Positions 645 through 26,193 of a stretch of DNA of 32,000 nt are shown here, piece after piece (position 1 is the stretch's first letter; the number at the start of each line of letters is the position of its first letter). The position numbers and the translations under genes were made by a program. The DNA comes from Candidatus Heimdallarchaeota archaeon B3_Heim. GTDB taxonomy: Archaea > Asgardarchaeota > Heimdallarchaeia > Hodarchaeales > Hodarchaeaceae. The DNA is taken from the NCBI GenBank assembly GCA_003144275.1, contig NJBF01000008.1, positions 30,001-62,000 on the forward strand, given 5' to 3'. The notes below the pieces were generated by a model that worked only from the letters and a program-made list of their open reading frames with translations, did not search any database and was not told where the DNA came from.

Positions 645-1412
645 TTATTGTTTTTCTCTTAAAGAGTTCCATACAGCCATAAAAGCAGACGCTTTTTCTA
701 AATCAATAGGTGAATGCAAATTAGTGGGCTCGTACTTTAATGAACTTCCAATGATCACTCCTGAAATAAGAGGAAAAATAGTACTTACATTATCAACAGT
801 CACTCCGCTTCCCAATATCGGTTTGTGTTTGGTTCTAGAGACAAAATGGGTTAACGTATCTAATGGGAGTAGCGCACCTGTTTCTCTCCCCGATAATATT
901 ATTGCGTCTGCTCCACCACGATTTAGCGCATTTTTTGCTGCTTCATCCAAGGTAAATTGTCCAAGAGGTGTAGCATGTTTTACTCCAATATCAGCAAGTA
1001 TCAAAACTTTAGATTGGAGAACCTGTTTTTCTTGAATAACTTGTGAAGCAACACCCTCAATTATTCCTTGATCTGTAACATACGCACCTTCCCATATATT
1101 ACAGCGAATAAAACTCGCGTGATTAATCGTGGCCATTGTTATGGCTTGTAAACACGCATTTCTCAGAATATTCACTCCAACAGCTATTGTAGGAACTGAA
1201 TCTATGATTTTGTTCACTATTTTACTCATTAACAAAAATTTGGCGTCAGAAATTCGTGTCTTGGGAAAGGGAGAATCATGAAAATTTTCTATGAGTAACG
1301 CGTCAAATCCAGCCTGCTTTAAAGTTAGAGCATCGGCTATACTTATTCTGAATGCTTCATCTAAATTAAATTCTGGTGATACATAACTTTCAAATGATGG
1401 GAGATGTATCAT
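645..1412 (-). CDS. BtpA/SgcQ family TIM-barrel protein
   Basis: Family motifs MIHLP, LIENFHD.PF, GVNILRN, ADIGVKHA, GGADAIILSG.ETG, GSGVT, G.IIGSSLK. The conserved KPIIG strand lies upstream of the ATG (see findings). Confidence 0.9.
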   Translation of the reverse strand: MIHLPSFESYVSPEFNLDEAFRISIADALTLKQAGFDALLIENFHDSPFPKTRISDAKFLLMSKIVNKIIDSVPTIAVGVNILRNACLQAITMATINHASFIRCNIWEGAYVTDQGIIEGVASQVIQEKQVLQSKVLILADIGVKHATPLGQFTLDEAAKNALNRGGADAIILSGRETGALLPLDTLTHFVSRTKHKPILGSGVTVDNVSTIFPLISGVIIGSSLKYEPTNLHSPIDLEKASAFMAVWNSLREKQ

Positions 1413-1532: not shown

Positions 1533-1547
1533 GGAAAAGTTGTTAAA
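1533..1547 (+). promoter_or_regulatory. Candidate BRE + TATA element for the C/D sRNA and ttuA transcript
   Basis: Purine-rich GGAAAAG (1533-1539) followed by TTGTTAAA (1540-1547), about 28 nt upstream of box C. Position fits an archaeal promoter; sequence match is imperfect. Confidence 0.35.
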
Positions 1548-1570
1548 GGTATCCAAAAACAGAAATGACT

Positions 1571-1647
1571 TGCTATGATGACGGTTTTACCGGCTGAACT
1601 AAACATTTTACTGTTTAGAGATGATGAGTACTGGCAAACTGATCATA
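1571..1647 (+). ncRNA. Box C/D 2'-O-methylation guide sRNA
   Basis: Four consensus boxes in order in an intergenic gap: C ATGATGA 1575-1581; 12-nt guide CGGTTTTACCGG 1582-1593; D' CTGA 1594-1597; 7-bp stem CTAAACA 1599-1605 / TGTTTAG 1612-1618; C' ATGATGA 1621-1627; 11-nt guide GTACTGGCAAA 1628-1638; D CTGA 1639-1642. Ends are approximate. Confidence 0.9.
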
Positions 1648-1660
1648 TAGATGAATTCAA

Positions 1661-2596
1661 ATGACTGCATGTAATTGTGGAGCTTTAGGAGAATATAAAG
1701 ATCCATTCAATCCATATTCTCTCGAATATTGCTCTTCTTGTTTTTCAGCTTACCTAGAAAAAAAAATTCTGCGGGGAGTGCGGCGTAGAGTTAGGGGGCA
1801 TCCGATCGCTGTAGCCGTATCAGGAGGAAAAGACAGCTTAGTATTACTTAATGTTCTATATTCATATCAAAACGAGCTTAAACTATCTTCTTTAATTGCA
1901 CTAATCCTTGAAGAGGAAATACCAGATATTCAGCAGGAAAGACAGAAAATAATCCAATACTTACATAAACACTATTCAGATTTGCCTATTAACATTGTCA
2001 AATATTCGGAGTTATTTGGCCATACTCTACCTCATCTTGTCACTATAAATGACAGCAAAAAACTTGGTTTTACACCGTGTAGCATTTGTGGAATATTTCG
2101 CAAACAGGCTCTTTTTCAAATGAGTTTACAAGCGGGTGTTGATTTCATAGCTCTTGGAACGACATTAGAGGATGAAGCTAGTACCATCATCCTGAACATT
2201 ATTCGAGGGTTTCCAACTCTCTCTCCAACCCAAAACTCATATTCCAATGATTCTAATACTCAAAGATTGCCGCAACGTATCAAACCTTTAGCCCGAATAT
2301 CAGAAGACTTAATACGTATCTATATTCGGATTAAGAATATTCCTATAATTTCTCAAACATGTCCCTATGCACAGAGATCTTTAAGGTCTGAAATTACGGC
2401 TTTTATTTCGACATTGAAAGATCGTGATCCACAAGGATCTTTCCTTTTTAATATCCTAAAAACAAAGAATGATTCTGAGAGAAAAACCTCTTTTCCCCAG
2501 AATACTTACCACTGTACGCGATGTCAGATGATCTCACATCATTCTCTTTGTCCAAGTTGCCGTATATTATCTAATTTATTGGAATCAAGCTTTTAA
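1661..2596 (+). CDS. ttuA: TtuA/Ncs6 (CTU1)-like tRNA 2-thiouridine synthase, PP-loop ATPase
   Basis: PP-loop AVSGGKDS; central CSIC plus CPYA supply the three Fe-S cysteines; N-terminal and C-terminal Cys-rich Zn-finger motifs (CSSC, CTRC..CPSC). The usual GHNxDD motif reads GTTLED. Confidence 0.85.
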   Translation: MTACNCGALGEYKDPFNPYSLEYCSSCFSAYLEKKILRGVRRRVRGHPIAVAVSGGKDSLVLLNVLYSYQNELKLSSLIALILEEEIPDIQQERQKIIQYLHKHYSDLPINIVKYSELFGHTLPHLVTINDSKKLGFTPCSICGIFRKQALFQMSLQAGVDFIALGTTLEDEASTIILNIIRGFPTLSPTQNSYSNDSNTQRLPQRIKPLARISEDLIRIYIRIKNIPIISQTCPYAQRSLRSEITAFISTLKDRDPQGSFLFNILKTKNDSERKTSFPQNTYHCTRCQMISHHSLCPSCRILSNLLESSF

Positions 2597-2722
2597 CTTC
2601 TTTACCTTATTCAATTTTGGTTTATTGTGGGGGGACAAAATTATTTGAGTAGTAAATTATCATCATTGACTATTCTATTCTCGCATAAAGTGTCACATGA
2701 AGTATTGAAACAGGTGAAGTTC

Positions 2723-4594
2723 ATGCAAGAGCAACTCTTCTTTGATTTACGGAAGGCACTAGCGCAAAGAAACATGGACGAGGTCAATTCTATATATGAA
2801 AGCCTTCCAGAAGAAGATCAATTAATTAGTTCCCATGAAAAATATTGGTATCTCAGGATTGAAGCTGAAGTCCATCATTTCAGACGAAGCAGTTCCCAAG
2901 CTCTACCATTTATCGAAAGAGCTCTAATTCTTGTACCGAAATTATCTCTGACTCATTCACAACTTGGAAGTCTTAACGGCAGATATGCTTCTTGCTTGTA
3001 TAAGACAAAAAGCTATAGAAAGGCATTAGAATACTATACAAATGCAAAAGAGTATAGTGAAACAGATATTCCAAGAAATTTTTATTATAAGTTAAAAATC
3101 CTGGAATGTTTGCTGGTACTTAATCAAAAATCAGAATTTTCCACCTTTTTCTGGGAGATAATTGAGAGTTTATTCGCTCTCCAACTCTCAAAAGTGTGGA
3201 ATCACCATCTCAACTATGTATGGGATCTAGTCACAATTCTTCAGAGAAGTAAGTTGTTTAATGAGATCAAAAATCTGTTGCATGACTACTCCCCAAAAGA
3301 AACTAAGGAATATTCAACATCATATTTATATTTTATTTTTGCTCATTTATCACGTTCAGAAAACGAATATAATGAGTTGATTAGACATATATCGGCAAGT
3401 CTGGAACATTTCCGTGATGAATGGAATCCAATTGACCAAAAGAATCTCTTGGTAAATTGTGCAAGTTTAGTTAAATATCCTTTCAGCGACTTTCAAACAG
3501 CTAAAACACTTTTGGATAAAGCCTTGACATTAAGTCCAGACCCCGATGGTTGGCGAATACATATTCTAAATTCTTTAGGATCAGTACTTCGGTTTACAGG
3601 AGATTATTCACGTGCTATCCGTCTACTTGAGGAGTCTATTAAACTTAGCATGCAGCAGGATAACCTTTGGCGATTAGGATTTGCATATAATACGTTAGGA
3701 ATGATTTATACGCTTTTAGGTAAAAATAAAGAAGCAAAAAATTCGTTCGAATCGAGCTTGGAGTGTAATACTAAAGAAAATAACTACACAGGGAAAGGAT
3801 ATACTTATGGATCTATGGGATGGCGTGAATCTATCTTAAGTAACTATAAATTAGCAGAAGAATTGTACACCAAGAGTATTGCCTCTTTTGAGAAATATGG
3901 AGATACTCCGCCAATTATTTTACTGGCAAAGGCAGAAGTCCTTTCGAATATTTATGCTGCAATGGACCCAGAAATTCAAAAATTACTTGACAACGCTCAG
4001 CATAGAATTTGGACAAGTAAAAAGAGATTAGATCAAGGTAGGTATTACATTGCTCTTGGTAATATATCTCTTAATTTCAAGAATTTTCCTCAGGCAGAAC
4101 ATAATTTCTTAGAGGCTATAAAACTCACTGACATCTATGAGGTAAAATCTCAAAGCCTATTAGGAACTATAAAGGTAAAAACAAGTCTTTACATCAAAAA
4201 TGAGGATCCAGAATGTCTAAAACAAGTAAAAAGAAGTTTAACACAGCTTAAAAGCATAACACGAGAAAACTCCCTACTATGGGCAGAAATGAACCTAATT
4301 TCGGCTATAATTGATATGTCAGAAGGAAATCTAGAACGGGCTTCCCAAAATTTATCTTCCTTGCGCTCTTATTCTGAAACACACAAACTTAAAGGGCTTT
4401 CTTCACGTATAACAAAGCAAGAAGATACCCTAACCATCTATTTAAGGTACAGAAAAATCCATGATCATTTTCAGGATCTACCTAAGCAAGAAGATCTAAA
4501 GACACAATCGTTAATGGATGTAATGGAGTATCTGAAAACAATTTCGCATTTATTAAGCTCATACTTATCAGTCTCCAAACCTAAAAATCCATAA
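2723..4594 (+). CDS. Large tetratricopeptide-repeat protein
   Basis: Repeated TPR consensus (ILNSLGSVLRFTGDYSRAIRLLEESI; AYNTLGMIYTLLGKNKEAKNSFESSL; YYIALGNI). Start moved from 2627 to ATG 2723 because of SD AGGTGA at 2712-2717. Confidence 0.85.
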   Translation: MQEQLFFDLRKALAQRNMDEVNSIYESLPEEDQLISSHEKYWYLRIEAEVHHFRRSSSQALPFIERALILVPKLSLTHSQLGSLNGRYASCLYKTKSYRKALEYYTNAKEYSETDIPRNFYYKLKILECLLVLNQKSEFSTFFWEIIESLFALQLSKVWNHHLNYVWDLVTILQRSKLFNEIKNLLHDYSPKETKEYSTSYLYFIFAHLSRSENEYNELIRHISASLEHFRDEWNPIDQKNLLVNCASLVKYPFSDFQTAKTLLDKALTLSPDPDGWRIHILNSLGSVLRFTGDYSRAIRLLEESIKLSMQQDNLWRLGFAYNTLGMIYTLLGKNKEAKNSFESSLECNTKENNYTGKGYTYGSMGWRESILSNYKLAEELYTKSIASFEKYGDTPPIILLAKAEVLSNIYAAMDPEIQKLLDNAQHRIWTSKKRLDQGRYYIALGNISLNFKNFPQAEHNFLEAIKLTDIYEVKSQSLLGTIKVKTSLYIKNEDPECLKQVKRSLTQLKSITRENSLLWAEMNLISAIIDMSEGNLERASQNLSSLRSYSETHKLKGLSSRITKQEDTLTIYLRYRKIHDHFQDLPKQEDLKTQSLMDVMEYLKTISHLLSSYLSVSKPKNP

Positions 4595-24943: not shown

Positions 24944-26193
24944 TGTAAATCCTTCCTCCTATTGAACTCTACTGAAATTATATTTGCTAGCTCATGCCCG
25001 AGAGTTTGCTTTGACCCCTTTAATTCAAGAACTTCCTGCTGGTCTCTTACAATGAATAATTCATTAGTTTTGGACACAAATCCTTTATTTGCTTCTCCAA
25101 CCCAATTTGCACACACAATATTCACTTTATTCTCTTCTAGAAACTGAGCTGCACGAGAAATCAGTTTTTTTTTACTAATACCAACTTCTGCCTTATAGGT
25201 AACAATAAAGAGAGACGGAAATTCGTTTCTTATTGTCTTCACAATCTTCATTGTAGGTTTTAACGAAATTGATAATTCATTCTGGCGGGACGGAATCTTT
25301 CCTTGTTGAAAGGTTGGTTGATAATCAGCTACAGCAGCTACAGAAATTAGCCCATCCACCTTTCCATTCGATAGTTGCTCTTTTACTTGCTGGTACATTT
25401 CGGAGGTAGATCTAACCACCGTTACTGAAGACGAAATAAGTTTCTGATCTATTGTATTTCCTTCTCCGAGGATGAATGAAACGTCTGCACCTAGCTTCTG
25501 CAATGCTTTTACAACATAAAGGGCTGACAATCCACTGGAAGGATTGGAAAGGAATCTAACATCATCAAAATACTCACGAGTTGCTCCACCCGTCACAATA
25601 AATTTAGTACCTTGTAACGGACGAGGAGCACTTAATAATGAAAATATCTGATCCATTAATCTCTCTAAGGGGGGAAATTTGTGTTTTTTCTCCTCTTCAT
25701 CACTTGAGAGAAAGTGTACGTCTAAGTGCTTGAGATACTCCATGTTTTTCTGGGTTATAGGGTTGTCAAGTAATACATTATGGGCTGCAGGAACGATAAG
25801 GCACGGAATATTTGCTCCAATGCTGGCTAAAGCCGTTAAAGAAACTGGACCATCAGCAACCCCAGATGCAAGTTTAGAGATGGTATTAGCCGTGGCAGGA
25901 CACAGTAAGTATAAATCTACCTTTTGTTCTGGATCCACGCTCCACTTAATATGTTCGGATAATCCTGAAATTTCAGTATAAGGAAGTTTGCCCATTGACC
26001 ATGTCAAAGAATCGACAGTAACAAATCGTAAGGCATCTTCAGAAAGAACTACAATAGGTTCTCCAGAATGACGAAGAATTTCCCGCACTAAATGGGGGGT
26101 TTCGATTGCAGCGATCGAACCTGTAACGCCAATTAGGATACGCTTACCCTCTAAAAGCTTACCCTTGGTTCCATAAATTTCGGCGATGCTCAT
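24940..26193 (-). CDS. coaBC: Bifunctional phosphopantothenoylcysteine decarboxylase/synthetase
   Basis: GVTGSIAA, PATANTISKLASG, TGGATREYFDDVRFLSNPSSG, AAVADY, KAE. ATGA overlap with panE. Confidence 0.95.
   Translation of the reverse strand: MSIAEIYGTKGKLLEGKRILIGVTGSIAAIETPHLVREILRHSGEPIVVLSEDALRFVTVDSLTWSMGKLPYTEISGLSEHIKWSVDPEQKVDLYLLCPATANTISKLASGVADGPVSLTALASIGANIPCLIVPAAHNVLLDNPITQKNMEYLKHLDVHFLSSDEEEKKHKFPPLERLMDQIFSLLSAPRPLQGTKFIVTGGATREYFDDVRFLSNPSSGLSALYVVKALQKLGADVSFILGEGNTIDQKLISSSVTVVRSTSEMYQQVKEQLSNGKVDGLISVAAVADYQPTFQQGKIPSRQNELSISLKPTMKIVKTIRNEFPSLFIVTYKAEVGISKKKLISRAAQFLEENKVNIVCANWVGEANKGFVSKTNELFIVRDQQEVLELKGSKQTLGHELANIISVEFNRRKDLQ

Follow-up and report, generated by a model that had tools for sequence, protein, structure and literature searches.

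A probable box C/D guide RNA from a Hodarchaeales archaeon predicted to target U531 in the 530 loop of 16S ribosomal RNA

The genome of Candidatus (Ca.) Heimdallarchaeota archaeon B3_Heim, a member of the Asgard order Hodarchaeales, very probably encodes a box C/D guide RNA that is predicted to target U531 of 16S ribosomal RNA (rRNA; Escherichia coli numbering). The small RNA (sRNA) candidate of about 77 nucleotides (nt) lies at positions 1571-1647 on the plus strand of the stretch we analyzed, a 32,000-nt piece of contig NJBF01000008.1 (positions 30,001 to 62,000; G000:C4:30001-62000, where G000 is the organism's own genome) that we call the window. We estimate a probability of roughly 0.75 that the locus is a genuine C/D sRNA that guides 2'-O-methylation of U531 (Um531).

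The candidate has the sequence hallmarks of archaeal box C/D sRNAs. It starts close to a box C of the form RUGAUGA and finishes close to a CUGA box D; D' and C' boxes lie in between, and the guides are in the range of ~10-12 nt. All four boxes fall within 1575-1642 (+), with a 12-nt guide upstream of D' and an 11-nt guide upstream of D (Table 1). A first-pass annotation had placed four boxes and guides of these lengths here, and its calls and coordinates were exact; the span it gave, 1575-1597, runs from box C to box D'. We searched both strands of the 3.95-Mb genome with a strict four-box regular expression, and the sRNA locus was the sole match. Three shuffled genomes gave 0 matches. Allowing one mismatch in D' and C' produced 1 match in the genome versus 0-1 in the shuffles.

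Table 1. Features of the sRNA locus and of the genes on either side; positions are those of the window.
Feature	Positions	Strand	Sequence	Remarks
BtpA-family gene	645-1412	-		Divergent, upstream
Candidate TATA-like promoter element	1540-1549	+	TTGTTAAAGG	Putative; ~30 nt upstream of box C
5' flank, weak 5' half of terminal stem	1571-1574	+		Covariation in alignment A2
Box C	1575-1581	+	AUGAUGA (ATGATGA)	Positions UGA.GA unvarying in 16 distinct genus sequences
D' guide, 12 nt	1582-1593	+	DNA CGGTTTTACCGG, RNA CGGUUUUACCGG	10 Watson-Crick pairs with own 16S
Box D'	1594-1597	+	CUGA (CTGA)	
D'-C' spacer, 23 nt	1598-1620	+		Contains hairpin 1600-1619
Internal hairpin	1600-1619	+	CUAAACA/UGUUUAG	7-base-pair stem, 6-nt loop
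Box C'	1621-1627	+	AUGAUGA, (A)TGATGA	Conserved among homologues
D guide, 11 nt	1628-1638	+	DNA GTACTGGCAAA, RNA GUACUGGCAAA	Conserved core CUGGCAA
Box D	1639-1642	+	CUGA (CTGA)	CUGA or CCGA within genus
3' flank, weak 3' half of terminal stem	1643-1647	+		Covariation test; no oligo-T here in own genome
PP-loop ATPase gene (PF01171)	1661-2596	+		Starts 19 nt after box D

The D' guide is complementary to the 530 loop of the organism's own 16S rRNA. The genome contains one assembled 16S gene, on the minus strand of contig C88 (G000:C88:1616-3089), and its 530 loop reads GCGGUAAAACCA (the same region is given at other lengths as GTGCCAGCCGCCGCGGTAAAACCAGC and GUGCCAGCCGCCGCGGUAAAACCAGC). Guide positions 1583-1592, which are N11-N2 when counted from the D' box, form 10/10 contiguous Watson-Crick pairs with nucleotides 528-537. 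Both ends of this duplex are unpaired, with G1593 (N1) opposite G527 and C1582 (N12) opposite A538. The fifth base upstream of D' (N5) is A1589, which pairs with U531; this nucleotide, U466 in the numbering of the extracted 16S, is the neighbor of the decoding nucleotide G530. Solved structures of archaeal C/D ribonucleoprotein (RNP)-substrate complexes show the same geometry, in which a 12-nt spacer gives a 10-base-pair (bp) duplex.

These results bear on several predictions of the first-pass annotation. It had expected A1589 to face U531 by the D+5 rule and the first base before D' to be unpaired, and both expectations hold in the own 16S. The annotation had further anticipated 11/11 pairs if a base of the loop that it left as N were A. 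That base is indeed A, but the count is 10/11 because position 538 of the own 16S is A rather than G. Finally, it had proposed recovering the host 16S and had named two or more mismatches to the guide core as evidence against the assignment; we counted 0 in the 10-nt core.

Matches of this quality are uncommon in the genome. A 10-nt match in the D' register to the assembled rRNA is reached by ~0.3% of random genomic 12-mers. The arrangement of a C box, 12 nt and CUGA occurs 8 times in the genome, and 2 of the 8, the sRNA locus among them, attain such a match. Complementarity of at least ~9-10 bp to a stable RNA, with a Watson-Crick pair at N+5, was found for the D' guide and not for the D guide.

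Homologues of the sRNA are widespread in two Asgard families. A BLAST search against 40 relatives recovered clear homologues in the same genus. We also scanned one genome per GTDB species with the strict pattern and obtained 20 matches, 12 archaeal and 8 bacterial. All 12 archaeal matches show every element of the layout, and their records bear the names Candidatus Hodarchaeota, Ca. Hodarchaeum mangrovi, Heimdallarchaeota bin272, bin6 and MAG_8, Promethearchaeota and one 'uncultured archaeon'. The 8 bacterial matches lack the C' and D boxes and were rejected as chance. Identification of the locus as an Asgard C/D guide, as the first-pass annotation had it, thus agrees with the presence of all C/D sRNA sequence features and of close homologues in Hodarchaeota, Ca. 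Hodarchaeum mangrovi and Heimdallarchaeota records.

We built a covariance model (R1) from 27 sequences to count genomes that carry the RNA. It was detected in 20/21 genomes of the organism's own genus (g1, in family f1, Hodarchaeaceae), the missing one being 71% complete, and in 30/31 genomes of Heimdallarchaeaceae (f3). The model found it in 0/31 genomes of families f2, f4, f5, f6 and f7 of the same class, Heimdallarchaeia: 0/2 in f2, the sister family within the order, whose genomes are fragmented and 80-85% complete, and 0/29 in the four others. Relaxed patterns gave the same two-family distribution. Among 28 other Asgard families, a relaxed pattern matched in 5/286 genomes, each time with guide-internal mismatches; the reversed-pattern control gave 4, and these matches are at chance level. 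The sRNA is single-copy.

The 10-nt core of the D' guide, GGTTTTACCG (GGUUUUACCG), is unvarying in every homologue from both families. All four bases occur at N1 and at N12, and the spacer and flanks also diverge. The D' box is mostly CUGA in the genus, with the variants CAGA, CUGG, CCGA and CUCG (the last in G021), and is mostly a degenerate xxGA in Heimdallarchaeaceae, where G235 retains CUGA. The first-pass annotation had regarded a lack of box conservation in close relatives as grounds for abandoning its proposal. Boxes and guide are kept across the two families.

The RNA also contains stems that change in sequence and are maintained as pairs. Every homologue forms the internal D'-C' hairpin when the spacers are folded singly, and its stem sequences differ and compensate. 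Alternatives to the stem in Table 1 include CCAAUCG/CGAUUGG, CUUACG/CGUAAG, CCUACAA/UUGUAGG and CCCUAUAA/UUAUAGGG, and Heimdallarchaeaceae have versions of 2-4 bp. This hairpin would close the C'/D' motif as a full kink-turn (K-turn) rather than a kink-loop (K-loop). RNAalifold returned only a trivial 3-bp fold inside the guide from MAFFT alignment A1 because the hairpin arms were misaligned there. The terminal stem is 8-9 bp long in Heimdallarchaeaceae and ~2 bp in the genus. Over 8 pairs, its covariation score was 0.58, versus 0.25 in shuffles (0/500) and at most 0.21 with slid partners. The innermost two pairs of this stem, at columns 8-82 and 9-81 of alignment A2, are retained in most homologues.

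The protein partners of a C/D RNP are encoded in the same genome. Genes for fibrillarin (E 7e-81) and Nop5 (E 2e-66) are adjacent on contig C57, and there are two L7Ae-family genes. We infer expression of the sRNA, assembly of the RNP and the methylation itself, and propose the following model. The sRNA would assemble with L7Ae, Nop5 and fibrillarin, and L7Ae would bind both the terminal C/D K-turn and the hairpin-closed internal C'/D' K-turn. The D' guide would form its 10-bp duplex with nascent 16S at 528-537, which lies in helix 18 on the 530 loop's 3' side. Fibrillarin would then 2'-O-methylate U531, opposite the fifth guide base upstream of D'. The D guide may touch the other strand of this helix (514/516-521) through a short pairing of 6-7 bp.

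Several observations weigh against a guide for Um531. A search of sequencing runs retrieved 20 runs, 19 with part of the stretch; all were DNA metagenomes (marine sediment, cold seep, seawater), none was an RNA run with the locus, and the search is silent on expression. The terminal stem of the own genome is short, as only G1572-C1644 and U1571-A1645 can pair (~2 bp). No Rfam family matched in the window at its gathering score, and such a match is not expected for a new guide family because the Rfam C/D models are guide-specific. The 16S target is near-uniform across the phylum. Conservation of the guide is a sign of constraint that does not name the constraining RNA. Guide-target covariation cannot be sought within the phylum because nearly all Asgard 16S sequences read GGUAAAACC (A534). 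None of the matches to the D guide makes a convincing target, and the N5 register of this guide moves by lineage among G517, C518 and C519. Finally, a 23S site in the congener G001 forms 12 contiguous pairs with the D' guide, two of them G-U, and most of the own 23S is unassembled and was hence screened in part only.

The uniformity of the target comes from a survey of Asgard 16S genes, in which 129 of the 301 sampled genomes gave a hit. Nearly all read GCCGCGGUAAAACC, with A at position 534; rare variants have G or C there. As far as is known, bacteria and most other archaea have U at 534. A guide of the U534 type (GGTATTACCG) was present in no archaeon in the strict-pattern scan of one genome per GTDB species, a scan that guides with degenerate boxes would escape.

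We next consider the D guide. Its core is an unvarying CUGGCAA in the genus, CUGGCAC in the Heimdallarchaeaceae genera g4, g7 and g16, and CGGCACC in g8. All versions are complementary to the 5' strand of helix 18, GGUGCCAG (514-521), by 6-7 bp only. The best matches in the own rRNA are UGCCAG at 516-521 of 16S (6 bp, N5 = C518) and UUGCCAG at own-16S 1060-1066 (7 bp). The latter site (UUGCCAGC) extends to 8 bp in G001 and fits the guides of the genus, not those of Heimdallarchaeaceae. About 0.27 matches of 7 bp are expected by chance in ~4.5 kb of rRNA. We found no D-guide match in 22 tRNAs (aragorn, introns allowed), in the 5' part of the own 23S or in the 23S of G001. The 23S of G028, a family f3 genome assigned to Ca. 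Heimdallarchaeum aukensis by an exact protein match, contains UGUGCCAG, which forms 8 bp with that organism's own D guide, and this site is not kept across the genus. The 11-mer complement of the D guide is found whole once elsewhere in the genome (C32:55542). The role of the D guide is uncertain because its pairing with the opposite helix 18 strand is only 6-7 bp. It is more likely an accessory or chaperone contact beside the D' target than a second efficient methylation guide.

We also noted that the segment from the 530 loop to UUGCCAGC is ~1350 nt long in the 16S of G007 (L071, G007:C9:2000-4300), versus ~600 nt in other genus members. This suggests that the G007 16S gene carries a ~750-nt insertion or intron.

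Complementarity of both guides to helix 18 raises the alternative that a genuine C/D RNP acts mainly as a folding chaperone, parting the strands of the 530 loop during assembly, with U531 methylation absent or incidental. The two helix 18 strands are matched in every lineage (528-537 by D', 514/516-521 by D). Chaperone roles have been proposed for double guides by Dennis et al. (PMC4644070), and conserved guides of deliberately non-methylating geometry are known in Pyrobaculum (PMC6009581). The D' guide, however, places a perfect A-U pair at N5 of an optimal 10-bp duplex with canonical D' spacing, a geometry expected to methylate, and the 6-7 bp pairing of the D guide is no better than chance. 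We therefore regard a mainly chaperoning role as unlikely.

A second alternative is that the real substrate of the D' guide is another RNA and that the 16S match is secondary. One candidate is the 23S site in G001 described above, which reads CCGGUGAAACUG and lies near E. coli ~1995-2006. Only the 5' 1150 nt and 3' fragments of the own 23S are assembled, and a model search of two closed genus genomes did not find 23S. Over the N2-N11 core, the 16S duplex has 10/10 Watson-Crick pairs, versus 8 Watson-Crick pairs and 2 G-U pairs for 23S. Extension of the 23S duplex needs N1 and N12, and these vary freely among homologues. The 23S site is also missing from the 23S of Ca. Heimdallarchaeum aukensis, despite the same guide. 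A different primary substrate is thus very unlikely.

The search for 23S turned up stand-alone copies of the last 250-330 nt of the gene (Rfam LSU model 2721-2973, including the sarcin-ricin loop), detached from the rest of 23S. Two lie ~9 kb apart on contig C65 of the own genome (L004:3498-3825 and L004:12431-12734) and one on a large contig of a congener (L038:2020-2330, G010:C12). Contigs C65 and C9 carry more copies at their ends. Possible explanations are that attachment sites of integrated elements were duplicated, that an rRNA gene is split, or that the copies are assembly artefacts.

The position of the sRNA suggested a third alternative, in which the RNA is an L7Ae-bound K-turn leader that regulates the downstream PP-loop (tRNA thiolase-like) gene in cis and does not guide in trans. 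The sRNA occupies a 248-nt gap between the BtpA-family gene (-) and the PP-loop ATPase gene (+), and it ends 19 nt before the start codon of the latter. The order BtpA(-), sRNA(+), PP-loop(+) recurs in 13/16 distinct genus loci examined. Within the genus, the PP-loop protein falls to 39-43% identity and the D' guide is unchanged. The sRNA is not adjacent to the PP-loop gene in three species of the genus (G001, G016 and Ca. Hodarchaeum mangrovi) or in any of the Heimdallarchaeaceae examined. In Heimdallarchaeaceae, it abuts a convergent C69-family dipeptidase gene, 3' end to 3' end (L075:1587-2948, L080:1574-2965), a conserved setting unlike that in the Hodarchaeaceae genus. An invariant 10-nt complement to 16S is needless for a leader.

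Putative transcription signals also bear on the leader proposal. TTAAAT(A)-like A/T boxes lie 28-36 nt upstream of box C in most genus homologues and are weak in the own genome. An oligo-T run follows box D in many homologues from the genus and from Heimdallarchaeaceae. Because of the upstream box and the oligo-T run in many homologues, the sRNA appears to be an independent transcription unit. The own genome lacks the T-run, which fits a leader, and transcription may therefore read through into the PP-loop gene there. Taking these points together with the changes of neighbor, we give the leader proposal very little credence. Chance resemblance of intergenic sequence to C/D boxes is effectively refuted by the 0 strict matches in shuffled genomes and by the ~50 genomes of two families that keep the RNA with covarying stems.

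Two further features of the neighborhood were recorded. A gene for a 655-aa tetratricopeptide-repeat protein lies directly downstream of the PP-loop gene (2627-4594, +). An AGATGA(G/A) motif is conserved in most genus homologues between box D and the PP-loop start (window 1648-1660). The motif may serve in ribosome binding or represent an additional C-like box, and a sub-threshold match to the Rfam family sR5 uses it as a box.

We compared the sRNA to known guide RNAs. Sub-threshold Rfam matches are almost all to archaeal C/D families: sR14, sR5, sR21, sR17, sR1 and sR3. The best cmscan match, to sR14 (RF01145), scores 19.6 bits over the C box, guide and D' box (gathering 38 bits), and sR21 (RF01137) scores 16.1 bits over 1571-1647 (gathering 45 bits). 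Membership of either family was rejected: the scores are far under gathering, and the likeness is confined to the boxes and to a few letters of the guide.

Archaeal guide-directed methylation has a known hotspot in helix 18, where some double guides address both strands (PMC4644070). The crenarchaeal double guides Sac sR115, Pca sR28, Tte sR114 and Iho sR21 share with our sRNA the four-box layout, the L7Ae/Nop5/fibrillarin RNP and the N+5 rule (PMC4644070). In both cases, the D' guide addresses the 530 loop on its 3' strand, and the D guide addresses helix 18 on its 5' strand. They target A535 (D') and G515 (D), whereas the registers here are shifted by 4 and ~3 nt, to U531 and C518 (G517 or C519 in some lineages). 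Three other differences separate the RNAs. Pairing of the D guide is limited to 6-7 bp here, a 7-bp hairpin takes the place of their short K-loop between D' and C', and the hosts belong neither to Crenarchaeota nor to other hyperthermophiles.

The 489-sRNA compilation of Dennis et al. 2015 includes predictions at A532 and A535, and the parts of its supplementary tables that we covered list no guide for consensus position 508, which corresponds to U531 (PMC4644070). Our literature search found no published catalogue of Asgard C/D sRNAs. The sRNA is a new family of a well-known kind, with a target site that has no earlier archaeal prediction in the literature covered.

The own genome appears to hold several guide RNAs that the strict four-box pattern misses, since two further C/D-like loci are present on contig C21. 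The first (G000:C21:~71990-72050, +) has ATGATGA, a guide and a non-canonical D', followed by ATGACGA-CACCGTCCCAGT-CTGA. The second (G000:C21:~25180-25230, -) reads ATGACGA-CAGTTGCACTTA-CTGA, and its 10-nt core matches the 5' part of the own 23S at 875.

The predicted target is also a C/D-guided site in eukaryotes. As the first-pass annotation had recognized, U531 is equivalent to yeast Um578 (guided by snR77) and human Um627 (HBII-135/SNORD65); the Arabidopsis counterpart is Um580 (AtsnoR77Y) (PMC2794176, PMC3511168). Hoeppner and Poole traced the clan of snR77, SNORD65 and AtsnoR77Y to LECA, the last eukaryotic common ancestor (PMC3511168). They listed only about three positionally equivalent archaeal guides, none of them for Um578/Um627, and considered convergence possible (PMC3511168). 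The Asgard sRNA and this clan (CL00057: snR77, RF01181; HBII-135/SNORD65, RF00571; AtsnoR77Y) share the predicted methylated nucleotide and the class of guide RNP. They differ in that the clan's target reads GGUAAUUCC and the Asgard target GGUAAAACC, so that the guides differ at two positions. The Asgard genes are free-standing and intergenic rather than intronic or polycistronic. Similarity to snR77/SNORD65 in Rfam, a check that the first-pass annotation had suggested, did not materialize: neither RF00571 nor RF01181 is among the matches at E<=10 over positions 1400-1800 (401 bases).

Common descent of the sRNA with snR77/SNORD65 is a tentative proposal that we consider doubtful. Under it, the sRNA would be the archaeal orthologue of the LECA-level clan. 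Guide-directed Um531 would already have existed in the ancestor shared by Hodarchaeales, Heimdallarchaeaceae and eukaryotes and been inherited vertically, and the stem-closed C'/D' K-turn would be a eukaryote-like trait acquired in that lineage. An internal D'-C' stem is common in eukaryotic small nucleolar RNAs (snoRNAs), and Hodarchaeales are often placed closest to eukaryotes. Under phylogenies that set eukaryotes beside Hodarchaeales, as Eme et al. 2023 reportedly describe, the last common ancestor of Hodarchaeales and Heimdallarchaeaceae is also an ancestor of eukaryotes, which favors orthology. Against orthology, the sister family within the order and four further Heimdallarchaeia families gave no match to the sRNA. 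The Asgard target does not vary, which makes convergence a real alternative, with the guides aimed independently at a universally conserved loop in a known methylation hotspot.

The locus adds unannotated C/D sRNAs to Asgard annotation. In this family, the internal K-turn is predicted to be closed by a stem, and the terminal stem is long in Heimdallarchaeaceae. Until now, the tracing of individual snoRNA families has stopped at LECA. Should the site prove unmethylated or the match convergent, the sRNA would simply join the ordinary archaeal guide RNAs directed at the helix 18 hotspot. If orthology is true, it would be one of a very small number of single guide RNAs whose history can be followed through the transition from archaeon to eukaryote. 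A near-universal guide in two Heimdallarchaeia families, aimed at the same nucleotide as its eukaryotic counterparts, offers a specific case in which continuity of the rRNA modification program can be tested.
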